Source of the DNA: a virus
Length of the DNA stretch: 64,000 nucleotides
IMG/VR virus record: IMGVR_UViG_3300025141_000025
Coordinates: 64,001-128,000 of that record
Strand: one strand, 5' to 3'
Under the pieces are notes generated by a model that saw nothing but the letters and a program-made list of their open reading frames with translations, was not told the origin of the DNA and searched no databases. Below are positions 3,105 to 55,236 of this stretch, in pieces; position 1 is the first letter of the stretch; each line of letters opens with the position of its first letter. Made by a program: the position numbers and the translations under genes.

Positions 3105-3105
3105 T

Positions 3106-3954: not shown

Positions 3955-3955
3955 G

Positions 3956-30278: not shown

Positions 30279-30339
30279 AATTTATCTCCAGCGCATTTAC
30301 ATTCTACTACGCGTTAGAAAGTAATAAAATACCTATGGG

Positions 30340-32819: not shown

Positions 32820-32871
32820 TCGCAACTCCTAAACATAAGTATCTCCAGAAATTGTAGTAAAAAATAATGTT

Positions 32872-37522: not shown

Positions 37523-37754
37523 TATTTTCCTCCATTATAATTCTTTTAAGAATCATTTCTATCAATTCATCGGTACTTTCGTTATTTTCATACGGGCCCT
37601 CAATTGCAGCAATTTGCCCTTGCGCATTTTTTTTGGATGTGTGACAAGCTCGATGTTTTTTACCTTTCTTGTCCGTATAAGTTAAAGACCAATTTCCTTT
37701 ATCACCATCACTTTGCTTACATGGGTTTTTTAGCTTGTTAATCCTATAAGGCAT
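37515..37754 (-). CDS. Hypothetical protein
   Basis: In operon; C-terminal LKRIIMEE resembles the leader motif. Confidence 0.5.
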   Translation of the reverse strand: MPYRINKLKNPCKQSDGDKGNWSLTYTDKKGKKHRACHTSKKNAQGQIAAIEGPYENNESTDELIEMILKRIIMEENNG

Positions 37755-40663: not shown

Positions 40664-42769
40664 TTATTCGCTAGGAGGCATACAAATTTCATCTAATATT
40701 TCCATGAGATAATTGTACATTTCGACCGTGTTGTTACTTAGCGGATAGTATTTTCCACCACATGAATTGGCAATTTCATCCCATTCCCACTGTTCATTAA
40801 CTGAAAATGTGTATGTTTTTAATTGTGGTGTTGCCTGACAGGTGCCAATCACATCCGCCGGACTGAGTTGCGGACTCAAATAACTTTGAGGTGCCTCGTC
40901 ACTAAAAACGATAATAACACGATCTGCCCCGGGTCTCCAGCTTAGTTTAAATTGATCTTTGGTAGGAACTGATTCTCCGACCCAGTTATTCCATGGGGTT
41001 ATTGCGAGATCTATGGGGGTATTTCCGGAAATATTTTGAAGTGAAAGGTAAATAGCGTCTAGCAGCATTTCGCTACCTGTGTTCATCCCAGTATTTCCTA
41101 AACCTGCAAAATCCCCCAGAAAATCAGGAAACGAAGAAATATCAGAAATCATGTATAATCTTTCTTCAAAATCGCCAGGTGCCTCTCTAGGACCAACAAT
41201 AAGTCCCCAGTGAAGTTTGTCTTGTAAGGAATAATGTCCAGCAAACTGATTTAAGGCAGTTAACACGGCACTAATTTCATCGCCCATAGACCCTGACCAA
41301 TCAATGATAAAAAGAATGTCAGTCTCAGGAACCTCTTTACCCCAGTCAACCATGCCGTCACAGTCATCATCCAGACCATTACATTCTTCATCCTGTGGAA
41401 CGACCTCATCCATACACATACCAGCCAAGAAATTGTCTTGGTCATCATACCCACCCCAAACACCGGTGAGGCATGTCATCATTCCAGGTTCGCATATTCC
41501 TACATTTAATGTTCCCTCTGGGCCCGTGTAACAACCAACAAATAAATCCTCATCAATTAACTGATTACAATTATCATCAAAATTATTACATTCTTCTTCT
41601 TGCAGGGGCATACCAACAAGAGAGTCGCAAAGTGGATCAGACCCGGGTGGGTCAGCTAGCCAATGGCATGCAGCAAAGCATTCCGTCGTTGTTATCTCTA
41701 GGCATGCAGGATCTACACATTCACATGTTTTGAAGCCTTGACCACAAAGTAATGGTGGTTCAGCACATGGAAAAAGAGATCCCACATCCTGTATTGTACA
41801 AAGACATTCAATTCCATCATCGATCTGCCCGTTACAGTCGTTATCTAGACCATCACAAATCTCTGGTGATGGTTGTTGTGCTGTACAACTAGCCCATACA
41901 CCGTTGGTACAAACTTCAACCCCACTACCACATGATGTTGTGCATACCTTGACCAAATCCTCGTCGGTATCTCCATCACAATCGTTATCTAGGCCATCAC
42001 ATACCTCAGCTGGGACAGGCCCACACTCGTTACAAACGTTTGTCTGAAATTCATCAATTTCACCATCACAATCGTTATCTAGATAATCGCAGATTTCCTC
42101 TTGAGGTTCCGGGCCGAAGCACACCTCCTCGCCGTCAACACACACGGCATTACCGGCGCCACAGATTGTTTCGCATGCCATGACACCCAAATCTTCGTCC
42201 ACCAAGCCATCACAGTCGTTGTCCAGACCATCACATTGTTCAGGATTACAGGGTTGACATTCTGAATGATATAATTGCCCTTTGTCACATGTAACCTGTT
42301 GTTTTCCAACAGTCCCGTCGTCCATCTCACACCATTGCCAACCATAATCCAGGCTCTGAGCCATGGGTGAGCATTCGTATGCCTCGGTACATTCACCCAT
42401 GAATATAATTTCTGGTGGCGGGCAGTCAGGATCATGACCATACATGCATGGTTCATTATCATCATTGCAAATATCAACAGTAACTTCTTTTTTGTGATAT
42501 GTAGGCTGTCCAAATTCAGGAGGACAGAACCATTGCTGTGATTGACAACATTCAGGATAACAGCTACACCAACCAGAATCCGAAACACTAATTTGAAGGC
42601 AAGGATCTGGTGGGGCTACATCAACATCATTGTGTAGTGTGTCTAGTTCTTCTCGAGGCATTGGATAAATTGGTGTATCCGAATTTTCTACACCATCATT
42701 TTTATCCGAACATCCAAGTGGGTATGTAAAAAAAACTAGAAATAGTAAAGGTATTATCTTCGCCTTCAT
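40664..42769 (-). CDS. Cys-rich lipoprotein with six CDGLDNDCDG-type metal-binding repeats and a C-terminal vWA domain
   Basis: Lipobox-like YPLGC; six E.C[DN]..D[ND][DN]C[DN]...D repeats; MIDAS DILFIIDWSGSM...VFSDE. Confidence 0.8.
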   Translation of the reverse strand: MKAKIIPLLFLVFFTYPLGCSDKNDGVENSDTPIYPMPREELDTLHNDVDVAPPDPCLQISVSDSGWCSCYPECCQSQQWFCPPEFGQPTYHKKEVTVDICNDDNEPCMYGHDPDCPPPEIIFMGECTEAYECSPMAQSLDYGWQWCEMDDGTVGKQQVTCDKGQLYHSECQPCNPEQCDGLDNDCDGLVDEDLGVMACETICGAGNAVCVDGEEVCFGPEPQEEICDYLDNDCDGEIDEFQTNVCNECGPVPAEVCDGLDNDCDGDTDEDLVKVCTTSCGSGVEVCTNGVWASCTAQQPSPEICDGLDNDCNGQIDDGIECLCTIQDVGSLFPCAEPPLLCGQGFKTCECVDPACLEITTTECFAACHWLADPPGSDPLCDSLVGMPLQEEECNNFDDNCNQLIDEDLFVGCYTGPEGTLNVGICEPGMMTCLTGVWGGYDDQDNFLAGMCMDEVVPQDEECNGLDDDCDGMVDWGKEVPETDILFIIDWSGSMGDEISAVLTALNQFAGHYSLQDKLHWGLIVGPREAPGDFEERLYMISDISSFPDFLGDFAGLGNTGMNTGSEMLLDAIYLSLQNISGNTPIDLAITPWNNWVGESVPTKDQFKLSWRPGADRVIIVFSDEAPQSYLSPQLSPADVIGTCQATPQLKTYTFSVNEQWEWDEIANSCGGKYYPLSNNTVEMYNYLMEILDEICMPPSE

Positions 42770-42822: not shown

Positions 42823-43476
42823 TTACAGGTTAGCCTCAAGTAGCCGTAATAAGACAGCCTCAGTGATGTCTGCAATTTTGCTTTGTTGTAAAGCTATGTC
42901 ATCTTTTGAGGGACTTCCCGTACCCCAGTCAGGCAACGAGTTATCAGTCATACATGCACTAATATTAATTTTTTTTGAACCCTGCACACCGCCTCCGGTG
43001 TATAAAATTCCTACATGTCCCTTGTCAGGATACACAAATAAATCTGTTCCAGCGGCATTGGCTATTTGACATGCCTGTTTTAAAGGAATGGCATCGTCCA
43101 TACCACCGGCAATAGTAACAGATCCTCCGGGTAAAGTTGGAATGGGAGCGCTGGTCCATCCTCGCAAAGCAGCTGGAGCCATATAGGTAATCGGTGGAAT
43201 GGCCGCGGGCATGTATTCGCTTTGCATTGCCCTGTTCAGCGCCGCGGCGCCACGGGAATAAGCAAAAATTCGTTCAGGTCGTTCAGCTGCAATTTTTTTA
43301 GCAATGGCATCAGCTTCTTCATCAGTGACTGGTCCACTTTTTCCTATTTCTATTCCGCCGTATCCAAGCCTGGCTTCAAGATCGTCCTCTGACATACCGG
43401 CGCCATGAAGTCCTAAGGGAACTTCTAACAAACATTGTCTAATAAGATTGGTAAGATCGCTGCGTGTGATAATCAT
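42823..43476 (-). CDS. Alpha/beta hydrolase with divergent leader
   Basis: Nucleophile elbow AYSRGAA, Asp in GGMDDAIP, His in DKGHVG; N-term ITRSDLTNLIRQCLLE. Confidence 0.65.
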   Translation of the reverse strand: MIITRSDLTNLIRQCLLEVPLGLHGAGMSEDDLEARLGYGGIEIGKSGPVTDEEADAIAKKIAAERPERIFAYSRGAAALNRAMQSEYMPAAIPPITYMAPAALRGWTSAPIPTLPGGSVTIAGGMDDAIPLKQACQIANAAGTDLFVYPDKGHVGILYTGGGVQGSKKINISACMTDNSLPDWGTGSPSKDDIALQQSKIADITEAVLLRLLEANL

Positions 43477-43724
43477 CTTACAAAATCTTTTTTAAGCGCC
43501 TCTATAGCTTCGCTCAACGCATCTTCAAATTTTGTAAATGCCTCTTTGCTAATCGACACTGAGCCAGGTTCTATCATTGCAACATCATCATACAAAACAT
43601 CATAAAGGTAATTTTTATCAAAAACTCCAAGTGGTGCAGCGTTACCACTTTCATCGTTCTTACTGGAAAACATTGATGATCGTTCTAAAATAATTTCTCT
43701 AATCATGTTTCTGGAAATTTTCAT
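43473..43724 (-). CDS. Leader-family protein (divergent leader MKISRNMIREIILE)
   Basis: Leader-like N-terminus; GVFDKNYL shared with 52910-53230. Confidence 0.65.
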   Translation of the reverse strand: MKISRNMIREIILERSSMFSSKNDESGNAAPLGVFDKNYLYDVLYDDVAMIEPGSVSISKEAFTKFEDALSEAIEALKKDFVR

Positions 43725-43741
43725 ATTTTTATTTTATCCAA

Positions 43742-44011
43742 TTATTTGAAAATTTTTTCCTTGGCTGTGTTAAACAATTGCGGCAAAAAAGACTTTTTTA
43801 ATCGCAGCAGTCTTTCAAACCTCACACGTTTTCTTGCATCTGTGTAAAGTGTTGTAGGTCGTCTAATCTCGCCATCAATGATTTGTTCACTAAAGTCGTA
43901 AAATTTAGATTTACCACTTGATTTAGGGGGTGCAGCATACGCAACGTTGAAAAAAATAAAAAAGAACAGCAAAAGAATTATAAATGAAATTCTTTTGTTG
44001 CTGATTTTCAT
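43742..44011 (-). CDS. Secreted CglF/GltF-like (myxobacterial adventurous gliding) protein
   Basis: Signal peptide ending AYA; YDFSEQIIDGEIRRPTTLYTDARKRVRFERLLRLKKSFLPQL resembles the recalled CglF pattern IDFxDxxIEGELxKPxGxYxxxRxxxxFxxLIxxRxxFxPEL. Confidence 0.6.
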   Translation of the reverse strand: MKISNKRISFIILLLFFFIFFNVAYAAPPKSSGKSKFYDFSEQIIDGEIRRPTTLYTDARKRVRFERLLRLKKSFLPQLFNTAKEKIFK

Positions 44012-44277
44012 GATTTATTTTTCACTTTTTTGACGATATTCTTAATTCTACGTCGTAGAAGTCTTTCACCCAAAACTGGACCTCCTACATCTAATGTCTC
44101 TGGTCTTTTTGTGGTCTCTTCACCACCGGCAGCTTTTGAATGATCAATATCCAATTCCAAATTACCTGCCTCGGGACACCCTGCCCATACATTTTCAATA
44201 GGTTCAACTTCTTCCGGGTGATCAGAATCAAGCATTTCTTTAATTAGTTTTCTGAGTTGTCGTTTTGTAATTTTCAC
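44008..44277 (-). CDS. MKITKRQL-leader protein
   Basis: GTG start; MKITKRQLRKLIKE. Confidence 0.8.
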   Translation of the reverse strand: MKITKRQLRKLIKEMLDSDHPEEVEPIENVWAGCPEAGNLELDIDHSKAAGGEETTKRPETLDVGGPVLGERLLRRRIKNIVKKVKNKS

Positions 44278-44759
44278 TAGTCAATACTCCTATCGATTGC
44301 TTTATATACAGGATACATCTCATCCCATGTCGCCCAGTCAATATCTCCGGATTCTACGGCAGCTTCTAATACATCTGGAATATTAGAGGTGAAGCCGCCC
44401 TTAGGATGAGCGCCCGGTCCTTTGGGTTTGGAAAAAGGATCAACATACATGTTGCCGTCTCTTCCCTCGAAACCTTTATAAAAACCAATGTCGATAAGAT
44501 ACTGGTGCACCTTCTGTGTCAGTTCCTGCTTAGATCCTTTCCATTTTTTTCCTGGTCGGCTTGAAGATTGCTGCGATGGTTGCGGCGCTCTGGATGGTGT
44601 GGTTTGACCCGTGGAGCCGGCTTCAAAATCCCTAACAAGCTGCTCATACTCGGCTCGAGTAATCGTGCCGGCCCTATAGTCTTTGTAATAATCTGCAGGC
44701 TCTTCGAGTAAAAGTGATTCTCGAATAATTCTTCTAAGTTGTCTCTTTGTGATTTTCAT
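44277..44759 (-). CDS. MKITKRQL-leader protein
   Basis: MKITKRQLRRIIRESLLLE. Confidence 0.8.
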   Translation of the reverse strand: MKITKRQLRRIIRESLLLEEPADYYKDYRAGTITRAEYEQLVRDFEAGSTGQTTPSRAPQPSQQSSSRPGKKWKGSKQELTQKVHQYLIDIGFYKGFEGRDGNMYVDPFSKPKGPGAHPKGGFTSNIPDVLEAAVESGDIDWATWDEMYPVYKAIDRSID

Positions 44760-45104
44760 TTATAACTCTTCTCGATATCTTGGATCAATTGCTATTAACC
44801 TTTTATAGTCGTGATCTGTTTCATATCCGTTTGCTTGTAATATTGCTTCAATATCCTGTGCTCGCACACCCATTTTCCTTTCTAGTCCCATTAGTTCGCC
44901 ATTGGTGGCGATGTGATACTGCCCCGGAAAATCAGTCGATAAATAAAACTTAAAACCTTTAAGGTCTAGTTCAGTACCAAGCAATTGCTCTATTTTATCT
45001 AGGTTTGGATCACTATCCCACTTATCATAGTCACTGTATTTTACCTTTTCGATCTCTTCTTTGATGATTCTCTTTAGTTGTCGTTTTGTAATTTTCATAA
45101 TCAA
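44760..45104 (-). CDS. MKITKRQL-leader protein
   Basis: (MI)MKITKRQLKRIIKEE. Confidence 0.8.
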   Translation of the reverse strand: MIMKITKRQLKRIIKEEIEKVKYSDYDKWDSDPNLDKIEQLLGTELDLKGFKFYLSTDFPGQYHIATNGELMGLERKMGVRAQDIEAILQANGYETDHDYKRLIAIDPRYREEL

Positions 45105-45316
45105 AATCCTAAGACTGCACCTTCATCGTGATGTCGATCTTCTAGTTCATCGGCTAATTCCCGGAGCGCTTCTGCACGCTCAAGATCAGAGCGAAGCGTA
45201 GTGCCCACTAACTGATCAATCAATCTCCATTGTTCTTCACGATTGTCGCCGAACATGTTATCCTTATCCCGGGCTTCCTTAATGATTCTTCTGAGCTGTC
45301 GTTTTGTAATTTTCAT
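45101..45316 (-). CDS. MKITKRQL-leader protein
   Basis: MKITKRQLRRIIKE. Confidence 0.8.
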   Translation of the reverse strand: MKITKRQLRRIIKEARDKDNMFGDNREEQWRLIDQLVGTTLRSDLERAEALRELADELEDRHHDEGAVLGF

Positions 45317-45564
45317 TAGCTTATTATTCCTTTTATTTTTTCGAGGTAATCATCTGCAATTTCTGGCTTCACTCCCATGCTCTTGTTCATGAAAGCTGTC
45401 TTTATTATATCCTGTATTTGTAGCAATTGCTGGTGAGATGTAGGTGCCATCGAATCTTTCCATTCTTCATATGCACCGGGATTGTTCGGATCCATACGTT
45501 CGGAAATTATTTTAGCGCTCTCTTCTTTGATGATTCGTCTTAGTTGTCGTTTTGTAATTTTCAT
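45316..45564 (-). CDS. MKITKRQL-leader protein
   Basis: Start at the TAATG overlap 45564; MKITKRQLRRIIKEESAKIISE. Confidence 0.8.
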   Translation of the reverse strand: MKITKRQLRRIIKEESAKIISERMDPNNPGAYEEWKDSMAPTSHQQLLQIQDIIKTAFMNKSMGVKPEIADDYLEKIKGIIS

Positions 45565-45989
45565 TATGGACATACCCATTTTCCCATTCTTTGTTGCCAA
45601 TACGGCTCAGTAGCCTCTCCGGTCCTTCGATCTTTGCAACCCATTTGTTCTCCAGTGGGTTTTTTATCCCGCCTGCTGGTATCTACACGGCCTGACCGGT
45701 CTATGCCGGGAGCCCAGTATTCTTCTAAATCATCTTCTTTAAGGAGGTCGGTTCCATGTGAAAGATCATCGATTAGGTTTTCATAGTCCTCAACAGGTAC
45801 CTCATGGCCTAGGTCATCCATAAAATCGTCATATAAAAGTGATTTAATTGCGCCTGCTCCACCAGTGGCTAAAGCAGGATCAGCATGATAAGATTTTGCC
45901 CTATCGGTTAAATAAGTTATGATCTCATCGTTGGACGCAACCATGGCTTCTCTGATTATTCTTCTTAGTTGTCGTTTTGTGATTTTCAT
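45564..45989 (-). CDS. MKITKRQL-leader protein
   Basis: MKITKRQLRRIIRE. Confidence 0.8.
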   Translation of the reverse strand: MKITKRQLRRIIREAMVASNDEIITYLTDRAKSYHADPALATGGAGAIKSLLYDDFMDDLGHEVPVEDYENLIDDLSHGTDLLKEDDLEEYWAPGIDRSGRVDTSRRDKKPTGEQMGCKDRRTGEATEPYWQQRMGKWVCP

Positions 45990-46276
45990 CGCTTCCAGTC
46001 ATCCCCCATGAGCTCATCGATCTCGCGCCAGCTTGCCTTCGTGATAAGGTACTTGTATCGAGGGTAAAACTTGCCATCGATATAGTCACGAATCGCATTC
46101 TCACCCTGTAGGACGACCTCGGTGGGGACAACGTAGCTAATCCCTTCACCCTCAGTGTGCTCATGGCCATACCACTCAACCTCAACTGAGGTCACTGGTG
46201 TACCCACAGGTAAACCAGTCATGCGGTCTATTTCTTCTCGGATGATTCTTCTTAGTTGCCGTTTGGTGATCTTCAT
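45986..46276 (-). CDS. MKITKRQL-leader protein
   Basis: MKITKRQLRRIIREE. Confidence 0.8.
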   Translation of the reverse strand: MKITKRQLRRIIREEIDRMTGLPVGTPVTSVEVEWYGHEHTEGEGISYVVPTEVVLQGENAIRDYIDGKFYPRYKYLITKASWREIDELMGDDWKR

Positions 46277-46536
46277 GTCTGGTTCCCTATATCAATTGCT
46301 CTTTGTAGCGCGATCTCATATGCGTCGCCACGTTGTCCGCCGAGCCCGGTAATCTTCTCAAGCGCTGTATCAGCTATTTCGGCCGGGGTTGCATTTCTGT
46401 AACCGGGTTCATGTGCTATATGGTCGACCCACATGTGAACCTCTCCGGTCAAACCGGCACCAGGTACTATTCCGCCATCCTTCCCGACAAACGCTTCTTT
46501 GATAATTCTTCGGAGTTGTCGTTTTGTGATTTTCAT
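46273..46536 (-). CDS. MKITKRQL-leader protein
   Basis: MKITKRQLRRIIKE. Confidence 0.8.
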   Translation of the reverse strand: MKITKRQLRRIIKEAFVGKDGGIVPGAGLTGEVHMWVDHIAHEPGYRNATPAEIADTALEKITGLGGQRGDAYEIALQRAIDIGNQT

Positions 46537-46958
46537 GAATAATACTCCTCAAAAGCACTTGTTCCATCATCTTCACCAGCGTACATTTCATCGGGATCTT
46601 TTTCCTCAACTTCCTCAACCTGCATTCCATTTTGTTTTGCATAAAGCTGAATGAGTTTATCGACATCTACACCATAGTAATCAGGGAATACGTCTGAATC
46701 CCATCTCTCCAAACCCCCTTGTACACCTTCTGCATCAGCTTTAAGCATTGCAGCGAGACCTTGCTCTGAAGTAAACCCTTGTACCCCTTCATCCAGAAGT
46801 GATCTTACCATCTCACCGAGACTGATCCATTCGCCGCCTTCATCTTCAACACTAAACCCGCCGTATGGAAGGCGCTTGACATAAAGCGTACCTTCGGACA
46901 TTACGTTCGAAATTTCTTCTTTGATAATTCGTCTGAGTTGTCTCTTTGTGATTTTCAT
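46533..46958 (-). CDS. MKITKRQL-leader protein (acidic)
   Basis: MKITKRQLRRIIKEEISNVMSE. Confidence 0.8.
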   Translation of the reverse strand: MKITKRQLRRIIKEEISNVMSEGTLYVKRLPYGGFSVEDEGGEWISLGEMVRSLLDEGVQGFTSEQGLAAMLKADAEGVQGGLERWDSDVFPDYYGVDVDKLIQLYAKQNGMQVEEVEEKDPDEMYAGEDDGTSAFEEYYS

Positions 46959-46966
46959 TTTTTATC

Positions 46967-47599
46967 TCAATCGTACATTGGGGGTATGTGCTTGACTGGC
47001 TTGCGCTTCTTCCTAAGAGTCGCGCCACCCTTCTCTAACACCTTTATAATCTTGTCTACTGTCGTCCCTGACTGTTTCGCCCATTGTTCATCAACGACAA
47101 AACTTGAACGCCCAAGCGGCATCGTACCCCATGGGGTCTCGTCGTCTTCGACCATAAACGCCACAACTTTACCACCCCTGCGAATGGGTTGGTAAGTCAA
47201 GTATTTTACCTCGCGAGGCTCGACAGCACCGTAGCTATCACCTCCGATGGCCTTGAGTTCTTTTTTGTCAGGAGAAGCACCAACTCGTTTTTGATGATCT
47301 TTATCCAGTGCCATCGAGATTGCCAACCGGATGTTTTCGAGATCAGGATATGGTGTAACCCCTAAGTCTGCCAACGTACCTCGGTCGTCGTCGTAGAAAG
47401 CGTCGGCCTGATCTAGACCGTATTCATCGATAAAGAGTTGTGCCACTTTTTGATGATCAGCATGGCTCATTTTTGAAGGGTCTTCAGGGAGGGCATCAAC
47501 AAGTTTTTTCTCCCATGCATCCAACTCGGCCTGGCGTTCTTTCCAGGATTTCATCTGTTCTTTGATGATTTTTCTAAGTTGTCGTTTTGTAACTCTCAT
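46967..47599 (-). CDS. MKITKRQL-leader protein
   Basis: MRVTKRQLRKIIKE. Confidence 0.8.
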   Translation of the reverse strand: MRVTKRQLRKIIKEQMKSWKERQAELDAWEKKLVDALPEDPSKMSHADHQKVAQLFIDEYGLDQADAFYDDDRGTLADLGVTPYPDLENIRLAISMALDKDHQKRVGASPDKKELKAIGGDSYGAVEPREVKYLTYQPIRRGGKVVAFMVEDDETPWGTMPLGRSSFVVDEQWAKQSGTTVDKIIKVLEKGGATLRKKRKPVKHIPPMYD

Positions 47600-47600
47600 A

Positions 47601-47981
47601 TTACATTCTCCACTTGCAGTTTCTAGCTAACCTGTCACATTTAATAAGTGCTTCTTTAATTAGTCTTTCTAACCCAAACAAATTCGCTGTTTTCCAATCA
47701 TCAAAATCTTCTAATTGTGAAGCAGATAGTTTTTTATCTGCACACCTCAATAAATGAGCCGCTTCGTAATACTTTGACTCGGCCAGCGCAAACATTTTGT
47801 GTTTGTGATGTTGTTCGGCTTCACTCATGATTGCTGATGCTTTATTATACAATAAAGCGGCGCAGTCTGCTGTAGGACCACATGTCACGATCGTCGTGCA
47901 CATTTTAGTTTTATAATCAATGGTACTTGTGGCACAAGAAGTACAAAGTAAAAATAGCATTACCGTGGCAAGAAATCTCAT
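47601..47981 (-). CDS. Putative lipoprotein
   Basis: MRFLATVMLFLLCTSC signal/lipobox from ATG 47981. Confidence 0.6.
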   Translation of the reverse strand: MRFLATVMLFLLCTSCATSTIDYKTKMCTTIVTCGPTADCAALLYNKASAIMSEAEQHHKHKMFALAESKYYEAAHLLRCADKKLSASQLEDFDDWKTANLFGLERLIKEALIKCDRLARNCKWRM

Positions 47982-47983
47982 TT

Positions 47984-48283
47984 TTAACTGCCAAGCATCT
48001 CGTCTAAACCAAGCATAGATTTGCACATAAAATAAGAATAATGTAATCTTTCGAAAGTTTGCCAAACATATTCAACACTCACAGGTCTCACGGACATCTT
48101 TAACCAGTAATCCGGATTAATGTCGACTGCGACGTCCTCAGCCTCTCTGATGTTTTCTGCCCTGATAAATTGTACATGGCTTTTAAATTCCCTGTGGGGA
48201 GTTTTTTCATATAATTCAAAAATACTGCCTTCCATTTCTTCATTATTTTTGAACAGATCCATCTGTATTGCTAGATTATTCAT
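47984..48283 (-). CDS. Hypothetical protein
   Basis: In operon, RBS GAGGAG. Confidence 0.55.
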   Translation of the reverse strand: MNNLAIQMDLFKNNEEMEGSIFELYEKTPHREFKSHVQFIRAENIREAEDVAVDINPDYWLKMSVRPVSVEYVWQTFERLHYSYFMCKSMLGLDEMLGS

Positions 48284-48292
48284 TTTCGTATG

Positions 48293-48445
48293 TCACTCCT
48301 CTTTATTCCACGGTGCGTCTGGGTCTTCCATTATCGATACCATACTTTTTTCGAATCCGCGGGTCGCTATCCAAGCACCCAAGACCATTCCCACAGCCGT
48401 ACAGCCAAGAAATGTAAGTGCCACCAGTATGGAATCCCAGCTCAT
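48293..48445 (-). CDS. Small membrane protein (50 aa)
   Basis: Not in ORF track. Manual translation MSWDSILVALTFLGCTAVGMVLGAWIATRGFEKSMVSIMEDPDAPWNKEE*; fills the gap between its neighbours. Confidence 0.6.
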   Translation of the reverse strand: MSWDSILVALTFLGCTAVGMVLGAWIATRGFEKSMVSIMEDPDAPWNKEE

Positions 48446-48447
48446 CT

Positions 48448-48630
48448 CTACTTAATTCTCACATGCGATTTCAAAATTTCGTCTAAGCTTTTTACAATTG
48501 ATGACAATGTGTAGGCAGTGTCTTGTGCTCGCATCATTGCCAATGGATTTTCTTTTCCCTCAATAGTTTGAAAAGATTTTATGGTAAATTCACGAAGCTG
48601 TATTAACATTTGAATTTCTTTTTGTGTCAT
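48448..48630 (-). CDS. Hypothetical protein
   Basis: TAATG overlap with the upstream gene. Confidence 0.55.
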   Translation of the reverse strand: MTQKEIQMLIQLREFTIKSFQTIEGKENPLAMMRAQDTAYTLSSIVKSLDEILKSHVRIK

Positions 48631-49313
48631 TATTCATTAGCCCAATCAGACGCGCCTAACAGGTATTGTCCTAAATCACTCGCATCTAATTTATCCAAAC
48701 TCAATCTAAATGAATTACCGAATTCTATGGTGATCATATCTCCCACAACAGAAACCCTTGTTGCATAAGGCGTGTTATTGTCTAGGTCCCTAAGCGTAAC
48801 TCTTCGTTCCCACTGAGCCCCGGGCTTTGTAATTGGACTTTCATCAATTCGAGCTTTCTCTTCCTTGATGATTCTTCTAAGCTGTCGCTTTGAAATTTTC
48901 GTTCTGCCTTCTTTAAAGCTGCGCTGGTGAATCTCTTCATCGCTTAAGACACCACCAGCATCGTACTCTTTTCGTGCAATCTTGAGTTCTCTACTGAGGT
49001 CATCATGATCTATACCAAATTCATCAGCCAGAGTCCGGTGATTCCACCCCTGCGTCGCCGGATCATCTCGATCGCGGGAAACAAAATATGTTGCCATGAC
49101 GGAAGATGATGCAGGTGTTATGTGACCGTATTCTTTTGCCCATTTCTTATAGTGATTAATTAATTTTTCCGCCGTCTGATCTCCACCCATGGGAGCATCG
49201 CCGGTCGGATTATCGCGATACCGTTCGTAGTCTCCAGGAACAGTTGGGTCATAAGGTCGGCCACCATACTCTTTTATGATTCTTCTTAGTTGTTGCTTTG
49301 TGATTTTCATCAT
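48630..49313 (-). CDS. MKITKRQL-leader protein with a second internal leader
   Basis: MKITKQQLRRIIKE ... FKEGRTKISKRQLRRIIKEEKARIDE. Confidence 0.8.
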   Translation of the reverse strand: MMKITKQQLRRIIKEYGGRPYDPTVPGDYERYRDNPTGDAPMGGDQTAEKLINHYKKWAKEYGHITPASSSVMATYFVSRDRDDPATQGWNHRTLADEFGIDHDDLSRELKIARKEYDAGGVLSDEEIHQRSFKEGRTKISKRQLRRIIKEEKARIDESPITKPGAQWERRVTLRDLDNNTPYATRVSVVGDMITIEFGNSFRLSLDKLDASDLGQYLLGASDWANE

Positions 49314-49573
49314 CTAGCTCCATGTACCTTTTCAGCCATAAGCCTAAGTGCCTCTTTTCTAATTCCGGGTGAGCGAAACCCACCGCCAATACGTTCGGCT
49401 GAGATTCGGATAAACTCTATTAGCTCATCAGTCTGCATCTCAACCTCAGCTAGAAAATCAGCACGCATTTCATCTTCATCATCAGAAATAGTCCCGTCGG
49501 GATTCATTTCCCTAACAAGGCGAGATTTCTCTTCTTTGATGATTCTTCTCAGCTGTCTTTTTGTTATTTTCAT
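49310..49573 (-). CDS. MKITKRQL-leader protein
   Basis: MKITKRQLRRIIKEEKSRLVRE. Confidence 0.8.
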   Translation of the reverse strand: MKITKRQLRRIIKEEKSRLVREMNPDGTISDDEDEMRADFLAEVEMQTDELIEFIRISAERIGGGFRSPGIRKEALRLMAEKVHGAR

Positions 49574-49809
49574 CTTGTCGGTCCTCTTAAATTGTCCTTT
49601 AGTTCTCTAATGATCTTTTCTAACCCACCAACGATACCCATTGCCGTCTCGGGATCCTCTAAATTCCATCCCATACCTGCAGCAAGATCATCAATTGTTG
49701 TCCATACACCTTCGAATGTGTCGATATTGACCTGACCACGATTCTCATTGAGAAGTTTAGTTTTCTCTTCTTTGATGATTCTTCGAAGTTGGCGATCTGT
49801 GATTTTCAA
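49570..49809 (-). CDS. MKITKRQL-leader protein
   Basis: TTG start; MKITDRQLRRIIKEEKTKLLNE. Confidence 0.8.
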   Translation of the reverse strand: MKITDRQLRRIIKEEKTKLLNENRGQVNIDTFEGVWTTIDDLAAGMGWNLEDPETAMGIVGGLEKIIRELKDNLRGPTR

Positions 49810-50045
49810 CTTTGGTTCCCTTTTCTTAGTTCACTTGCTACAGTTTCCAATGCATCAGCAAATGTACCTTGAACCGCAGGGTCTGACATATCTACAGTGC
49901 CGGCCATTGCTTCGTCATCGAGCCAACGCCATATACCATCAACTGCATTTTGCCAGAGTCCGCCCTGAACATCTGGTTCGACACGCATGGATTGCGCTGT
50001 TTCTTCCTTGATGATTCTTCTAAGTTGTCGTTTTGTAATTTTCAT
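49806..50045 (-). CDS. MKITKRQL-leader protein
   Basis: MKITKRQLRRIIKEE. Confidence 0.8.
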   Translation of the reverse strand: MKITKRQLRRIIKEETAQSMRVEPDVQGGLWQNAVDGIWRWLDDEAMAGTVDMSDPAVQGTFADALETVASELRKGNQS

Positions 50046-50152
50046 TTTACGTTACACTTTCCTAAACAGTTACTGCAGCCACAACAGCCACAGCAACAAC
50101 AGCAGTGTGCGGAATTAAATAGGTTCCAAAGGCGGTGAAAAAAAGCTTTCAT
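50042..50152 (-). CDS. Cysteine-rich micro-protein (36 aa, 10 Cys)
   Basis: Not in ORF track. MKAFFHRLWNLFNSAHCCCCCGCCGCSNCLGKCNVK*; TAATG overlap upstream and ATGA overlap downstream. Confidence 0.75.
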   Translation of the reverse strand: MKAFFHRLWNLFNSAHCCCCCGCCGCSNCLGKCNVK

Positions 50153-50514
50153 TATGAATAATCTCCATTAATAAGCTTATCAGTAAACTCTTCCATGGTT
50201 TTGTACGCCAATTGCCTAATTCTTCTTGTAAGTTCGTTTTCAAGGTCAATTGCTGCGTCATCCACCTGTGCTTTCCATGCAGTTTTTGCATCGCCGGCCG
50301 TATCACCCATAGCCATCATAGAGGGATCACCCTTGTCAAATGCTTTGACTTCTGCATCGTGCCATTTATCGACAAGTTCACCTACGTCCTTCCAGTCAAC
50401 CCGGGGCCAGTGGTGAGCTCGTCGTTCCAAGCTAGGCATATCATCCTGTTCATCAAGGACTTTGGCCTTCTCTTCTTTGATAATTCTTCTTAGTTGCCTT
50501 TTCGTAATTTTCAT
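50152..50514 (-). CDS. MKITKRQL-leader protein
   Basis: MKITKRQLRRIIKEEKAKVLDE. Confidence 0.8.
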   Translation of the reverse strand: MKITKRQLRRIIKEEKAKVLDEQDDMPSLERRAHHWPRVDWKDVGELVDKWHDAEVKAFDKGDPSMMAMGDTAGDAKTAWKAQVDDAAIDLENELTRRIRQLAYKTMEEFTDKLINGDYS

Positions 50515-50954
50515 TTTTTATCCTTAGGGGTTGGCTTTTGTGTTTTTTTGATTTCATAAAATACAATATTAACGAATTCACCACTCTGTCCAAGCTGATC
50601 TAATTTAAGAAACTTGGCAGAGAATATTTCGTCAGATGATGTAGCATTTTGATATTCAACATACATCAGCATTAAAAGTTTAGCACCGGTCATATGTTTT
50701 TCAGACGAATCACCTGGAAATGTTACCATTAAAACATCATTCACACCTAGACAGTTGCTGTGTCTTATTACCTTCGCGACCATTGGAAATCTAAAAGCAG
50801 GTACATCATGCACCTCGACCGGAGAATTACATTTATCTATCACGGCCTGCACAGTCAGGTGATCATAAGATGGAATCACATTTTTAGTTGTAGTGGTACA
50901 AGATCCGCACCCAATCACAAATGTAAGCAATAAAACTGTTAAAATATTCTTCAT
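50511..50954 (-). CDS. Putative lipoprotein
   Basis: MKNILTVLLLTFVIGC lipobox-like signal. Confidence 0.65.
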   Translation of the reverse strand: MKNILTVLLLTFVIGCGSCTTTTKNVIPSYDHLTVQAVIDKCNSPVEVHDVPAFRFPMVAKVIRHSNCLGVNDVLMVTFPGDSSEKHMTGAKLLMLMYVEYQNATSSDEIFSAKFLKLDQLGQSGEFVNIVFYEIKKTQKPTPKDKK

Positions 50955-50958
50955 TCAA

Positions 50959-52023
50959 TTAACCTTTCATAAGACCAGATAGCTTTTGCCACCGCTCCAA
51001 GATAATTACATCCTCGGGTCGGAGATTATAAGATTCAGTCTTTGTTTTGTTTCCTAGCGCATTACCTATAGCGGTAAGATATTCCAGCGTTTTGTCAGTG
51101 CCCAGTTTTTTAAGGTCAACTTTGGCTATAGTTTTGATATCAGCACTCGGATCATTAAGCATTGTGGCGGCCCACCGATGATGACCATCGAGAATCTCAT
51201 CGTCGAGAGAGGCATATGCTTTAAGGTTACCACCGGAAACACCATTTACTGCCATTCCGAGTGCCTTGGGTAAGAGAATATTAGTTTGTGTGGGTACTGC
51301 TTTTTGTGCTGCCATACCTCCACCCAGCTTAATTTCAATACTGTCATCACTATCTTCACCGTCATTGGCACCAAGTCCAGCAGTCATAAATTCTTCAGCA
51401 CCGGGTGCGTCCATACCAAGAAATGCATTGGGAGCGGGAGCATCGCGCTCAACCAAATAATGTAACCCCTGTTTCCAGGCTGCCTCCTTAAACGGTTCAG
51501 CAATGTCGATATTGTATTTTCCGCCAGGTGTCAAAGCATCAGCAACATCTTTGACATCACCGGTTGCATCTTTCGGCCCGGGCAAGAAAGGCATCTTACT
51601 TTTTGGAAGTCCGCTACCGGGAATTTTTGAACCAACTGCTTCAACCCTTTTAATAAACGTTCCAGTACCCAGTTCTTCCAACCAGTCAGCAACCTTATCC
51701 GGATCTGGTTTGACAACAGTCTCCTCACCATCATCGCCCTTATCGGTAAATTCCATAGCCTTGAAAATAGGCTGTTCAGGATCACGAGTTAAAATTTGAG
51801 CAGCGACCTCTTTCGCATCGGCACCTTTAAAGTTTAACTGGTTGTCAAATGCAGTGCCTTTTGGCTCGCCTACATCAACAACCTCTTTTTCTCCCTCGGC
51901 CGATTCTTCTTTTGTTTCTTCAAAAAGAAATGTTGATAACATTGAGCGTGATGATTTAGGTTTACGGTGCTCAAGTATCACATCATGAATAATTTTTTGA
52001 AGATGTGCCTTTGTGATCTTCAT
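50959..52023 (-). CDS. Leader-bearing ParB/Srx-like domain protein
   Basis: MKITKAHLQKIIHDVILE; VPTQTNI...ILDGHHRWAA; C-term IILERWQKLSGLMKG. Confidence 0.7.
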   Translation of the reverse strand: MKITKAHLQKIIHDVILEHRKPKSSRSMLSTFLFEETKEESAEGEKEVVDVGEPKGTAFDNQLNFKGADAKEVAAQILTRDPEQPIFKAMEFTDKGDDGEETVVKPDPDKVADWLEELGTGTFIKRVEAVGSKIPGSGLPKSKMPFLPGPKDATGDVKDVADALTPGGKYNIDIAEPFKEAAWKQGLHYLVERDAPAPNAFLGMDAPGAEEFMTAGLGANDGEDSDDSIEIKLGGGMAAQKAVPTQTNILLPKALGMAVNGVSGGNLKAYASLDDEILDGHHRWAATMLNDPSADIKTIAKVDLKKLGTDKTLEYLTAIGNALGNKTKTESYNLRPEDVIILERWQKLSGLMKG

Positions 52024-52025
52024 GA

Positions 52026-52433
52026 TTAAATTTCCCCAGAAAGATCGCCCAAGTTTAATTCAGCACTTTCTGATAGGACATCAACTTGAGCTTCTAGCAT
52101 CTCTTGTAAGGCTGCAGCCTGAGCTGCCAATGCCTCAACAATCGGGGCCTTTTCGTTGATTTCTGGTCCACAATTAGTACAATGTTGCGCTGCATTTTGA
52201 ACAGACTCAACAACCAAGTCCAAGGATCTTGCAGCGACCTCCATTTCAGTAAGCATGTCACCGGCTGGATCTTCACTTTCATTTACAAGCTCACCCACAG
52301 CGTCTGCCACATCCACAGCAGGCAGCTCAAGTGCCACAGCCTCAGGCGCAGGTCCATGATCTCCACATGCTTCCTGTAATTTTCGGCGTTCGTTTCTAAT
52401 AATTCTTCTTAGTTGTCGTTTTGTGATTTTCAT
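52026..52433 (-). CDS. MKITKRQL-leader protein
   Basis: MKITKRQLRRIIRNERRKLQE; AGGAG RBS; CxxC. Confidence 0.8.
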   Translation of the reverse strand: MKITKRQLRRIIRNERRKLQEACGDHGPAPEAVALELPAVDVADAVGELVNESEDPAGDMLTEMEVAARSLDLVVESVQNAAQHCTNCGPEINEKAPIVEALAAQAAALQEMLEAQVDVLSESAELNLGDLSGEI

Positions 52434-52523
52434 TTTTTGCTCCTATTTTCATCACATTTATTACAAATAAACTATTTCATCCTTTGAAATAATTTTATAG
52501 TGTTTTTTACCTTTTGATCATTT

Positions 52524-52907
52524 TCAAAAGCTGGCCCCTAAATCAATTTCAATAGATCGATCCTCAGCCCATTGTTCAACATCAAGTGGACCGATAAAAC
52601 CATCCTGCGGTGGCTTACTATCAAGCCATGTTCGATTGGGTGCTCCAGCATGCTGAGCCAGGTCATCCAAATCTTCAAACCCTAACCCTCTTTGGTCTAG
52701 CCATTCACCCCAGCCTTTTTCAAGCTCGGCATCAGTCCTTTGTTCACCTTCGCCTCCAGGTGCGTAGTAATCTTCCTCACCTGGAGGTGCAGAAAAATCT
52801 CGATCATCTGAGTGCCATAGGTCTCTAACTTGGCGATCCACACCCGGCATACCTTCGCTAAGTGACTCCTTGATAATCTTTCTTAGTTGTCGGCAGGTAA
52901 GTTTCAT
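52524..52907 (-). CDS. MKITKRQL-leader protein
   Basis: MKLTCRQLRKIIKESLSE. Confidence 0.8.
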   Translation of the reverse strand: MKLTCRQLRKIIKESLSEGMPGVDRQVRDLWHSDDRDFSAPPGEEDYYAPGGEGEQRTDAELEKGWGEWLDQRGLGFEDLDDLAQHAGAPNRTWLDSKPPQDGFIGPLDVEQWAEDRSIEIDLGASF

Positions 52908-52909
52908 GA

Positions 52910-53230
52910 TTAGCCCTCCACTAAATCCATAACAACGGAATTAGTTGCACTGTTAATTGTTCGTTCAATTAGCTTGGCCTCATCAGGATCGAGGTAATCA
53001 GCGCCAATAGAATTCAAATAATCCATAATTTCTTCTCTAATAATGTCTGACAGATAACTCTTGTCAAAGACACCGTGATCTGGTTTAGGGTGAAGTGCTT
53101 GCATTCTAGCTCGAAAGTCATCATCCATCTTTGCTGCAGCCATACCCATATCAGCTGGAGTCATCTGCTCCATTAGTCTAGCCTTCTCTTCTTTGATGAT
53201 GCACCTGAGTTGTCGTTTGGTGATTTTCAT
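52910..53230 (-). CDS. MKITKRQL-leader protein
   Basis: MKITKRQLRCIIKEEKARLME. Confidence 0.8.
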   Translation of the reverse strand: MKITKRQLRCIIKEEKARLMEQMTPADMGMAAAKMDDDFRARMQALHPKPDHGVFDKSYLSDIIREEIMDYLNSIGADYLDPDEAKLIERTINSATNSVVMDLVEG

Positions 53231-53235
53231 GATTG

Positions 53236-53508
53236 TTAACGCTCCTGCAGCGACTGTATGACAAAGTTGATTACTTGGCGGGTTGTCAAAGGGCCATCTT
53301 GATAGTCTAAGTCGACCAGCCCTGAGGCATTTTCAATGGCCTCGTCCACCGCGACCATTAAATCCTCAAGGACAGATTCACCGGGAGCATATTCACCTTG
53401 GATACCCTGATTAAACTTATAGTCCGGCCGGCGGGTAGGCTGTTCATTCATAAGTCTAGCCTTCTCTTCCTTGATGATTCTTTTTAGCTGTCTTTTTGTG
53501 ATTTTCAT
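53236..53508 (-). CDS. MKITKRQL-leader protein
   Basis: Start 53508; MKITKRQLKRIIKEEKARLMNE. Confidence 0.8.
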   Translation of the reverse strand: MKITKRQLKRIIKEEKARLMNEQPTRRPDYKFNQGIQGEYAPGESVLEDLMVAVDEAIENASGLVDLDYQDGPLTTRQVINFVIQSLQER

Positions 53509-53509
53509 T

Positions 53510-54121
53510 TTAATCCCCTGTGTATCCCACATGTAGTCTTTTGTCTTCCAACGCAGCAATTACCATTTTTTGATCGGAATATTCTCCACTACTTCGATCA
53601 AGAGTCTTCAGAACTCTGTAAGCTGCTTCGATTTCCTCTTGAACTTCCGAGACTGCCTTCTGCTTGCTCTTGTAATAATCAGCAATCCCTGCGTCTTCTT
53701 TAAAGAGTTTGGCTTTCTCTTCTTTAATGATTCTTCTGAGTTGTCTTTTTGAGATTTTCATTTTTCCTTCTCTAATGACTTCGAGCGATCCGTTTGGAAA
53801 ACCCGTCTTAAATCCTAGTTGGTTAAGATAGCCTTGAATCTCATATGTTCTATCGCTACTTCCAAACCCTTCCATGCTGTCTTCATATCGCCAAGCTAAC
53901 TCGTCCGCAAGGTCTATCGCCAATATAGCATGCCTCGTCTCAACGCTCTGAAACTCTTCTGGGGTCAATAGTTGCTCAGCTGCCCGTGTATATTCATCTG
54001 GATACATTATGTAATCGACACCTGGCTCTGGACCTTGTGCAGTCATAGAACCTCTCTCTAAAAGATTCCGCTTTTCTTTTCTAATAATTTTTCTTAGATT
54101 TCTTTTTGTGATTTTCATCAA
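53510..54121 (-). CDS. MKITKRQL-leader protein with a second internal leader
   Basis: MKITKRNLRKIIRKEKRNLLE ... VIREGKMKISKRQLRRIIKEEKAKLFKE. Confidence 0.8.
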   Translation of the reverse strand: MMKITKRNLRKIIRKEKRNLLERGSMTAQGPEPGVDYIMYPDEYTRAAEQLLTPEEFQSVETRHAILAIDLADELAWRYEDSMEGFGSSDRTYEIQGYLNQLGFKTGFPNGSLEVIREGKMKISKRQLRRIIKEEKAKLFKEDAGIADYYKSKQKAVSEVQEEIEAAYRVLKTLDRSSGEYSDQKMVIAALEDKRLHVGYTGD

Positions 54122-54423
54122 ACGCCTCGCCTCTTCATGTCATGTGCTAAATCTGACATCTCTTCGCCGGCATCCATCAAAAGTTCTTCCAGTTTGTCAT
54201 ACCTGGACGTACCGAATTCGTTACCGTCATCAAGCCACTCCGGAGGTACAGACTTTATCTTTCGATACTCAAAGAACATTTTGTCCAATGCTGATCTCAT
54301 GGCCTCAACCTTATCAACCTCATCCTGGTTGAGGGTCAGTTGTCGGACATCTTTCTCAGCTCGGATCTCATTTACAAGTTTGCCCTTAATAATTCTTTTT
54401 AGTTGTTGTTTAGTAATTTTCAT
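54118..54423 (-). CDS. MKITKRQL-leader protein
   Basis: Start 54423; MKITKQQLKRIIKGKLVNE. Confidence 0.8.
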   Translation of the reverse strand: MKITKQQLKRIIKGKLVNEIRAEKDVRQLTLNQDEVDKVEAMRSALDKMFFEYRKIKSVPPEWLDDGNEFGTSRYDKLEELLMDAGEEMSDLAHDMKRRGV

Positions 54424-54719
54424 GAATTTTCCTTCGTGCCAAAGATCCAATTATAAATGCTAGCCGGAATTTCTTCACGCGGAGGGTACTCTAAAGTTCC
54501 AATAAACAACCTTAAATTTTGTGATCCCGTTATTGATCCCGTCTTGATTTCTTCAAGTACCTGGTCCCTGACATATTCCAACGCAACGGCATCATCACGA
54601 TATAACATTTTCATGGTGGCATCTGTTTCTGATAACAGGTGACTACGAATAAACCCTATTTTTCTGTTGATAGCCGCGATGCCGTTTTCTAATTCTTGGC
54701 GTGTAATTCGACTACCCAT
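54420..54719 (-). CDS. Hypothetical protein
   Basis: Start reassigned to ATG 54719 (GGAG RBS), MGSRITRQELENG. Confidence 0.55.
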   Translation of the reverse strand: MGSRITRQELENGIAAINRKIGFIRSHLLSETDATMKMLYRDDAVALEYVRDQVLEEIKTGSITGSQNLRLFIGTLEYPPREEIPASIYNWIFGTKENS

Positions 54720-55236
54720 TGTTTTTCTCCAACATGTGACGAACCATGGTCGTAATGTCCCCACGGGTGATTCGTAAAATTTGTGATTTCGATCGAGCTG
54801 ATTCGGCGATGCGGCGGCCCATACCGGATTGTCTAGGCACATCTTGAAAATCAAATTCACCAGGCATCAGCTCTTCAAGTTCTCGCCTTTCTTTTTCGAT
54901 GGCAGCCTGTTGCTCGACATCCAGTTTCTCCTGTTCGATCATGGCGTCGTAATAGTCATCCAAGTCTTTAATGGCTGTGTTGTATTCTTCCACAGTCTTG
55001 TATGGTCTGTGGCGAGGTCGAAACCCGTGGAGCTCTTTAAAATAATCAGAGTAAGTCTGCCCTAGAACTGATAGAGCCAAATCCTTACCTGTTACGACGC
55101 CCTGCCTCTCCCAAAAGGCTTGGTCTGTCACGTACCCGGCGCCGGTTTGAGCATTTATTTTTTCTGCTTCTTCCTGCGCGGTAGGTGCGAATTGCATGGC
55201 TTCGCGAATTATTCGTTTAAGTTGAGTTCTTTTCAC
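54712..55236 (-). CDS. First gene of the array, shortened leader MKRTQLKRIIRE
   Basis: GTG start with GAGGAG RBS; YSDYFKELHGFRPR motif. Confidence 0.75.
   Translation of the reverse strand: MKRTQLKRIIREAMQFAPTAQEEAEKINAQTGAGYVTDQAFWERQGVVTGKDLALSVLGQTYSDYFKELHGFRPRHRPYKTVEEYNTAIKDLDDYYDAMIEQEKLDVEQQAAIEKERRELEELMPGEFDFQDVPRQSGMGRRIAESARSKSQILRITRGDITTMVRHMLEKNNG

Follow-up and report, generated by a model that had tools for sequence, protein, structure and literature searches.

A 14-residue leader common to an array of unrelated small proteins in an uncultured marine jumbo phage: a candidate prohead-targeting propeptide

Introduction

Why should 25 small and otherwise unrelated proteins, encoded side by side in one viral genome, begin with nearly the same 14 residues? 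This question is raised by a 64-kb stretch of viral DNA (IMG/VR record IMGVR_UViG_3300025141_000025, positions 64,001 to 128,000; the whole stretch is hereafter termed the window), in which a tightly packed minus-strand run of 12.4 kb (positions 42823-55236) comprises 25 genes encoding a common basic N-terminal leader. An earlier reading of the DNA, referred to here as the original prediction, had proposed an expanded equivalent of the internal proteins of phage T4. The concept of a capsid-targeting tag has been part of the T4 literature since the 1990s. Internal proteins of T4 are diverse, and their only common feature is a capsid-targeting sequence (CTS) of 10-19 residues, which directs them to the core and is removed by the protease gp21 (PMC3012670, PMC9026906); gp21 cuts after L/I-x-E (PMC9026906). 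Based on the analyses presented below, the leader in the window is probably, with moderate confidence, a propeptide that targets proteins to the prohead core and is removed by a protease of the Peptidase_S77 family, and the array would represent an expanded analogue of the T4 CTS and internal-protein system.

Organization of the array and properties of the leader

In total, 21 genes of the array encode the canonical leader MKITKRQLRRIIKE(E) and four encode a divergent version, which agrees with the previously reported total of 25 and replaces the previous split into 22 and three. The gene at 43742-44011 (MKISNKRISFIILLLFFF) encodes a signal-peptide or membrane protein and does not count among the leader genes. 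Two further in-frame copies of the leader were detected inside fused genes (48630-49310 and 53510-54118). A six-frame search of the window with KITKRQLRRIIKE, allowing up to five mismatches, yielded 24 matches, all of them on the minus strand: 23 between 44236 and 54420, and one outlier at 37792-37830. Furthermore, a degenerate DNA pattern of the leader, allowing up to three mismatches, was matched 20 times compared to 0.00 matches expected from 100 shuffles. The genes are chained as had been described, with nine four-base overlaps of the ATGA type and six one-base overlaps of the TAATG type; the remaining junctions are mostly gaps of at most 9 nucleotides (nt), and only two gaps measure at least 90 nt. 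Six or seven genes lacking the leader, several of them featuring lipoprotein or membrane-like N-termini, are scattered through the array.

The consensus of the leader is MKITKRQLRRII[KR]E, often lengthened to EEKAKLxE. Among 391 leader proteins compiled from the window and 65 IMG/VR loci, positions M1, K2, I3, T4, Q7, L8, I11, I12 and E14 are nearly invariant, and the peptide corresponds to a short basic amphipathic helix with a net charge of about +4 and a hydrophobic moment of 0.67. For leader codons 2-14, the proportion of synonymous differences is close to saturation (pS = 0.62) and that of nonsynonymous differences is low (pN = 0.094; pN/pS = 0.15), with identities of 0.86, 0.90 and 0.62 at first, second and third codon positions, respectively. 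Among the leader genes of the window, identity from position -30 to -1 and past codon 15 stays at background level. Selection acts on the leader peptide and not on the leader DNA, as the original prediction had deduced from the predominance of synonymous variation.

Conservation of the peptide extends to copies located away from a start codon. Fused genes bearing two leaders were found twice in the window and three times in a complete related genome of 284 kb (G004), and a tandem leader is present in P0072. In the fused gene 48630-49310 the internal start codon has turned into ACG, and the internal leader peptide has been retained; the orthologous fusion in G004 retains it as well. Retention in fused genes suggests that the leader works away from the start codon, and its persistence without a start codon favours an internal signal or cut site over a role in translation initiation. 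Moreover, structure models generated with AlphaFold2 for cargos of 141 and 354 amino acids (aa) place the leader as a detached helix of lower confidence in front of a confident globular domain.

Association with the prohead protease and the head module

Peptidase_S77, the family of T4 gp21, was identified above the curated Pfam cut-off in all ten large leader-bearing contigs tested (10/10), in line with the linkage to a prohead protease that had been suggested for the leader. In 94.5% of 381 leader proteins the motif [LI]-x-E ends with Glu at residue 14 (I-[KR]-E, residues 12-14). For a second [LI]xE, the Glu falls on residue 21 or 22 in 48% of these proteins, and 58% of them contain an [LI]xE ending within residues 17-30, compared to 17% expected. 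Both the I-K/R-E ending and the frequent second hydrophobic-x-E had been noticed in the window. Regarding the specificity of the protease, alignment of the capsid proteins places FLTE↓AEIGG of T4 gp23 (the arrow marks the position cut in T4) opposite VLKE↓ASSVS in G004, IVSE↓A in Flavobacterium phage immuto and LISE↓A in Microcystis phage Mel-JY01. The capsid protein of the clade thus retains (L/I/V)-x-E↓A where T4 gp23 is cut, and it is therefore very likely that the protease of this clade keeps the specificity of gp21.

The head module was read in G004 and in two further relatives, G001 and G002. In G004 it starts with the terminase, a gp20-type portal protein, a 274-aa protein and the S77 protease, which is encoded at 82433-83041, followed by proteins of 134, 153, 97, 190 and 209 aa, an acidic scaffold-like protein of 538-543 aa and a gp23-like capsid protein. 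No match between T4 gp22 and the scaffold-like protein of G004 was obtained by BLASTP. A hidden Markov model (HMM) of the leader was run over the 2,933 six-frame open reading frames (ORFs) of G004: ranks 1-39 are all array genes, and ranks 40 and 41 are adjacent small genes located just downstream of the protease, with low scores of about 9-10 bits. The 153-aa head-module protein starts with MAKITKRMLKGIVKECLVE, the 97-aa protein contains KITPNFLKRIVVEEARKLQAE, and the G002 version of the second head-module protein reads KLTPALLKKLVMEEKAKLME, closely resembling the extended leader of the arrays. Furthermore, a relaxed leader motif composed after the sequences had been seen ([KR][IVLM][TS][KR]xx[LIM][KR]x[ILVM][IV][KR]E), which by chance would be expected on the order of 1e-3 times per genome at most, matched 29 array genes in G004 and 22 in G001. 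The sole non-array match was the N-terminus of a conserved head-module protein encoded two genes away from the protease, namely the 153-aa protein in G004 and its orthologue in G001.

Properties of the cargo proteins and turnover of the arrays

The sequences following the leader, termed cargos here, are about 55-340 aa long. All-versus-all BLASTP within the window confirmed that they are unrelated from gene to gene, except for a marginal match of the adjacent genes 49570-49809 and 49806-50045, which are probably old tandem duplicates since both match one ORF of G004. Their acidity, described earlier as a predominant feature, is uniform: all 27 cargo segments of the window have isoelectric points (pI) of 4.1-5.9, and 18 of 31 non-array proteins fall below pI 6. 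Clustering of 385 cargos from all loci resulted in 184 clusters, 119 of them singletons. Searches of the window cargos against Pfam and PHROGs, and of the 56 largest cargos from all loci against Pfam, provided three marginal matches only (Ser_hydrolase, DUF5824 and Mu-like_Pro), and phmmer searches of two cargos against PDB sequences returned no match.

For the 141-aa protein 46533-46958, nearly all full-length homologues, down to 40% identity, retain an almost unchanged leader, which is followed by a linker of variable length; a second (L/M)-x-E immediately precedes the fold. The model of this protein features the leader helix (residues 5-20), a linker, a second M-S-E site and a confident alpha/beta domain, for which Foldseek against PDB and the ESM Atlas gave no convincing fold match. 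The 354-aa protein 50959-52023 belongs to a widespread conserved family in which the leader version varies by lineage and the motif DGHHRW is invariant in 51 homologues. Proteins of the ParB/Srx fold account for eight of the top ten VIA-align rows obtained with its model, at Z-scores of only 2.6-4.5, and Foldseek E-values were 2.5 or worse; residues 230-320 are tentatively regarded as a ParB/Srx-like domain.

The window and G004 are syntenic on both flanks of the array (62-85% aa identity), and the window array occupies the same locus as a G004 array of roughly 5 kb. Many window cassettes have their best homologue in the other G004 array at 270-284 kb, and eight or nine are without homologue in G004. 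Moreover, single cassettes were found at 85-97% nt identity in other contigs amid unrelated neighbours. Comparison of array content between related genomes, which had been recommended, hence uncovered strong differences, and the arrays are, as judged from these genomes, hyperplastic and mosaic at the level of single cassettes.

Proposed function of the leader and comparison with phage T4

Taken as a T4-like propeptide, the leader would allow a variety of small, acidic and otherwise unrelated proteins to dock into the prohead core during assembly, the basic amphipathic helix of the leader binding to the acidic scaffold core. A gp21-type (Peptidase_S77) prohead protease would then remove the leader by cleaving behind Glu14, the second (L/I/M)-x-E around residues 21-22 serving as a reserve site, and the cargo of about 55-340 aa would stay inside the head. 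Binding to the scaffold core, cleavage and retention of the cargo in the virion are inferred from the T4 precedent. Less certain are the subsequent steps, in which the cargo would be ejected with the DNA into the host and might serve host takeover or anti-defence.

Several features resemble the T4 system. In both cases a short N-terminal propeptide is common to otherwise unrelated proteins, begins with MK and ends in (L/I)-x-Glu, and the set of cargos differs between related phages. The head genes of the relatives are of T4 type (gp20 portal, gp21 S77 protease, gp23 capsid protein), and their capsid protein retains the same type of maturation site. The differences are equally clear. T4 ip genes begin with MKTYQEFIAE or MKTFKEF..., and the former tag (10 aa) is slightly acidic, whereas MKITKRQLRRIIKE comprises 14 aa and is basic. 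T4 possesses three internal proteins, whereas the window array alone comprises 25 leader genes and a genome contains 30-40 of them; two-leader fused genes and a second tag class (MxLLREYIRxLLxE, described below) are further distinguishing features, and the present system is known from sequence alone, in uncultured marine Far-T4 jumbo phages. In the absence of homology of tag or cargos to the T4 internal proteins, the array genes were not filed as members of the IPI, IPII or IPIII families.

A number of results weigh against the prohead-targeting interpretation. The window itself contains no head genes, and the protease linkage rests on relatives. The HMM ranking obtained for G004 did not recur in G001: there the orthologue scored only about 2 bits and fell outside the 52 best matches of the genome-wide scan, and the relaxed motif carries the reservation given above. 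In sequence, the leader resembles the T4 CTS only in 'MK...I-x-E', and the closest cultured relatives are devoid of arrays. Furthermore, IPI-III are basic (pI 8.9-9.5) and the window cargos are acidic. This real difference from T4 makes a DNA-condensing role of the cargos unlikely, renders their dense packing beside DNA less obviously favourable and keeps alive the explanation as core filler discussed in the following section. Finally, no cargo contains a recognisable effector or anti-defence domain in the Pfam and PHROGs searches. The T4-like interpretation thus gained support from its sequence predictions (S77 protease, I-[KR]-E ending, capsid site, head-module motif and array turnover), and its anti-defence part did not.

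Alternative explanations

The tagged proteins might represent accessory filler of the prohead core or scaffold, which would be cut by the protease and degraded or expelled before packaging, like T4 gp22, gp67 and gp68, so that nothing would be delivered to the host. Acidity of all cargos is expected from such a role, since T4 core proteins are acidic, unlike the basic internal proteins; a jumbo capsid needs a large core, and two conserved leader-like proteins reside inside the head module, one of them with a weak gp67-like ARKLxAEA match (E = 0.04). Nevertheless, this explanation is considered unlikely. The cargos are folded domains with invariant residues down to 40% identity and not low-complexity stuffing, and past residue 40 the motif [LI]xE occurs at an ordinary 1.3% per residue, not densely as in a scaffold that is shredded. 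Moreover, the turnover of arrays between related genomes is more in keeping with genes for host interaction than with indispensable components of assembly.

Alternatively, the leader might act as a docking helix for a target other than the capsid, such as a phage or host hub (chaperone, protease adaptor or polymerase), a membrane or the nucleoid, in which case the I-x-E ending would be coincidental. Membranes, nucleic acids and many proteins are all possible partners of short basic amphipathic helices. In addition, timing of expression is not readable from the sequence: scans for late promoters of the T4 type (TATAAATA), sigma-70 promoters and terminators, together with the intergenic gaps, provided no usable signal. 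On the other hand, the near-invariance of the polar residues T4, Q7 and E14 would be unnecessary for generic binding to membranes or DNA, and a coincidental ending is difficult to reconcile with the I-x preceding Glu14 in the great majority of leaders and with the enrichment of a second site. Co-occurrence with the S77 protease was exclusive in the contigs tested, and outside the arrays of the two complete genomes the leader motif matched nothing but a head-module protein. Function as a Sec or Tat signal peptide was rejected, since charged residues (EEKAK...) follow the leader and a hydrophobic h-region is lacking. Docking to a non-capsid target is accordingly assigned a low probability.

It was also considered that the conserved 45 bp might primarily constitute a DNA or RNA element (a recombination site, translation-initiation region or regulatory repeat) with the peptide as by-product. 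The mosaic of single cargos with high nt identity amid differing neighbours, and the location of cassettes in different arrays in the window and G004, would fit such an element, as would in-register exact runs of at least 20 nt in 17 of 253 pairs of leader copies. However, the median of the longest in-register exact run is 11 nt only, variation at third codon positions greatly exceeds that at the first two, conservation upstream of the ATG is missing, and internal copies without a start codon are conserved as peptide. A nucleic-acid element as the primary function is therefore very improbable. The same figures bear on the suggestion that the repeated 45 bp seed recombinational exchange: cassette mosaicism is real, the exact runs are mostly short, and leader-mediated recombination is plausible but weak.

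Precursors of ribosomally synthesized and post-translationally modified peptides (RiPPs, such as prochlorosins) or a polymorphic-toxin cassette array offer a formal likeness only, namely one N-terminal leader on many variable C-terminal parts in tandem, and both, like the Sec/Tat reading, were ruled out on anatomy with next to no residual probability: the cargos are folded acidic proteins of 55-340 aa and not short Cys/Ser/Thr-rich cores, no modifying enzyme or transporter was found among the array neighbours, the tag comprises only 14 aa, every gene is a complete unit that has a start codon of its own, and the context is a lytic-type T4-like phage.

The phage, its relatives and distribution of the leader

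As judged from gene content and relatives, the source of the window is an uncultured marine jumbo myophage of the Far-T4 type, with a lytic-type, T4-like constitution. All genes of the window are located on one strand. They comprise a sugar/glycosyltransferase island, tail-fibre genes with an S74 chaperone and an endosialidase-like domain, and a helicase gene; PhoH-PIN, PrkA/DUF444/SpoVR, MoxR and a DUF2201 protein are encoded as well. Based on capsid and portal proteins, the closest cultured phages are immuto, Mel-JY01 and Rhodothermus phage RM378, which were previously grouped as Far-T4 phages (PMC4360716).

A total of 65 stretches, located on about 35 IMG/VR contigs, contain the exact degenerate leader pattern; many of these contigs measure 180-293 kb. 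Among complete relatives, G004 (284 kb, complete according to CheckV) contains 39 copies and G001 (293 kb) about 29-31, in each case spread over two or three arrays. The pattern was also detected in three contigs of metagenome-assembled genomes (MAGs) filed as bacterial. One of them, NHDW01000006.1 (305,838 bp; loci L093/L095), is assigned to 'Methylococcaceae bacterium TMED69', is as large as the genome of a jumbo phage and contains the leader twice; it is probably a misbinned phage. The leader was likewise observed on small contigs of Peribacter and Verrucomicrobiales MAGs. Immuto and Mel-JY01 show one weak leader match each. A tblastn search of one leader protein against cultured phages gave a single weak match, which belonged to an uncultured megaphage, and the leader string was not found in the literature searched. 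The uncultured 484-kb phage LR756508.1, whose capsid protein is 48% identical, encodes its own diverged leaders (MRLSERKLRRIVKEEISRVLRE and similar), which suggests that the tag evolves as a genome-specific set.

In both complete relatives a second class of leader, M[KN]LLREYIRxLLxE, which also ends in L-x-E, was identified on seven larger genes per genome (about 180-680 aa), located beside or among genes of the first type (G004 218990-229821, locus L089; G001 291751-293407 plus 1933-4310). Six of the G004 members were searched against Pfam and gave no match.

Comparison with known packaged proteins and possible significance

Among giant phages, the head proteins of phiKZ, 201phi2-1 and SPN3US (inner-body and ejection proteins) are comparable in that many internal proteins are cut after Glu at a short motif by gp21-related proteases, and propeptides with redundant cleavage sites have been described for giant phages (PMC9026906). 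Their propeptides lack one near-identical common leader, their cleavage motif is S/A/G-x-E, their capsid genes are not of T4 type, and they are known from proteomic data, in contrast to the genomic evidence available here. The Dar system of phage P1 (DarA, DarB, Hdf and Ddr; packaged anti-restriction proteins) embodies the same concept of capsid-loaded proteins that are delivered with the DNA and protect it. Its ordered loading proceeds via protein-protein dependencies and not via one short common tag, and no homology between the two systems was found. Encapsulin cargo-loading peptides are likewise short modular peptides that load diverse cargo into a shell of the HK97 fold, but their usual position is C-terminal, they attach to the shell itself and they stay on the cargo, a protease step being absent.

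In a wider and rather speculative interpretation, which is doubtful at present, one 14-residue tag would address an exchangeable library of effectors that are delivered by the virion and encoded by about 10% of the genes in these marine phages of 280-300 kb; the second tag class would serve larger proteins. The tag would at once act as prohead address, protease site and junction for swapping cassettes between arrays and phages, and fused multi-leader genes would represent self-resolving polyproteins. Such a system might be compared to a protein-level 'integron' for pre-made infection proteins and would far exceed the three internal proteins of T4.

If the prohead-targeting interpretation is true, abundant uncultured marine jumbo phages carry dozens of ready-made proteins into the cell together with their DNA, and their host takeover and counter-defence would have to be studied differently. 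The tag would mark hundreds of orphan families and provide function-agnostic access to candidate injected effectors, as well as a 14-residue handle for loading foreign proteins into the heads of non-model phages. Furthermore, the CTS principle of T4 would prove to be ancient, having diverged or been invented anew in the T4 superfamily, and lineage-specific tags would co-vary with head-core proteins.

Individual genes of the array and its surroundings

All genes described in this section are encoded on the minus strand. At its low-coordinate end the array contains two genes with divergent leaders, namely 42823-43476 (MIITRSDLTNLIRQCLLE, 217 aa), whose cargo is weakly alpha/beta-hydrolase-like (Pfam Ser_hydrolase, E = 5.9e-4, below the curated cut-off), and 43473-43724 (MKISRNMIREIILE, 83 aa). 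These are followed by 44008-44277 (89 aa), which starts with GTG and reads (V)KITKRQLRKLIKE, by 44277-44759 (MKITKRQLRRIIRE, 160 aa) and by 44760-45098 (MKITKRQLKRIIKEE, 112 aa), a cassette that is 97% identical at the nt level in locus L042. Leader genes 45101-45316 (71 aa) and 45316-45564 (82 aa) precede 45564-45989 (141 aa), which has a homologue (78% aa identity) in the other array of G004, and 45986-46276 (96 aa), a cassette with 95% nt identity in locus L052, where its neighbours are unrelated. Next in coordinate order are 46273-46536 (87 aa), the modelled 141-aa gene 46533-46958, for which about 70 homologue clusters reaching down to 40% identity were obtained, and 46967-47599 (MRVTKRQLRKIIKE, 210 aa), which is 73% identical to G004 279756-280376.

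In the central part of the array, the fused two-cassette gene 48630-49310 (226 aa) carries its second leader, TKISKRQLRRIIKEE, at 48858-48902. It is followed by 49310-49573 (87 aa) and the pair of probable old paralogues, of which 49570-49809 starts with TTG (KITDRQLRRIIKEE) and both members, including 49806-50045, encode 79 aa. The product of 50152-50514 (120 aa) is 83% identical to part of G004 272817-273416, and the leader of the putative ParB/Srx-like protein 50959-52023 (354 aa) is the divergent MKITKAHLQKIIHDVILE. Canonical leaders continue with 52026-52433 (MKITKRQLRRIIRN, 135 aa), 52524-52907 (MKLTCRQLRKIIKE, 127 aa), 52910-53230 (MKITKRQLRCIIKEE, 106 aa) and 53236-53508 (90 aa). In the second fused two-cassette gene, 53510-54118 (202 aa), the leader MKISKRQLRRIIKEE lies in frame at 53717-53761. 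The array ends with 54118-54423 (MKITKQQLKRIIKG, 101 aa), 86% identical to G004 282584-282898, and with 54712-55236 (174 aa), which starts with GTG and features the divergent leader MKRTQLKRIIRE.

Small genes without the leader that encode proteins of signal-peptide, lipoprotein or membrane type were located at 43742-44011, 47601-48065, 48293-48445 and 50511-50954, and some of the leaderless small array genes of the window are also kept in the G004 arrays. Within the family of the 354-aa protein, a motif (I/L)LFEQ(D/E)EE occurs about 30-45 residues into the sequence and recurs in the N-terminal region of the G004 scaffold-like protein (locus L071, 5372-6988; NNRILFEQEEF); it may represent a further shared processing or core-binding element.

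The outlier of the leader search (37792-37830, KMSKKQLRKIIRE, 17.3 bits with the leader HMM) is located near the C-terminus of a 497-aa protein (37744-39237) that exhibits the HAD-phosphatase-like motifs FDFDDTLG and FYDDDPEN. This protein possesses a hydrophobic segment near its C-terminus and the leader-like KMSKKQLRKIIREAIYTE at the extreme end, which may be a C-terminal form of the tag; over residues 1-334 the protein shares 76% identity with a G004 ORF. Directly adjoining the array, the gene 40664-42769 encodes a lipoprotein-like protein of 701 aa with many MopE-type Cys repeats ('CDGxDNDCDG') and a VWA-like C-terminal part, 62% identical in G004.

Auxiliary gene content of the window is unusual in including a complete PrkA/DUF444 (YeaH)/SpoVR trio (28347-32825) with very strong Pfam scores; in bacteria these genes form a stress- or sporulation-associated operon. 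The GC content of the window varies strongly: it is 0.33-0.38 in the sugar island and at 24-36 kb, 0.44-0.47 across the tail-fibre genes, and 0.50-0.56 in the part that starts at 56 kb. Among the relatives, G001 harbours tandem near-identical gp23-like capsid genes (locus L072, 14270-16168 and 16262-18151), which differ mainly in a central insertion. In G004, MKVGD (of MKVGDLV) starts nine ORFs, and KVGDL and VGDLV occur in 13.

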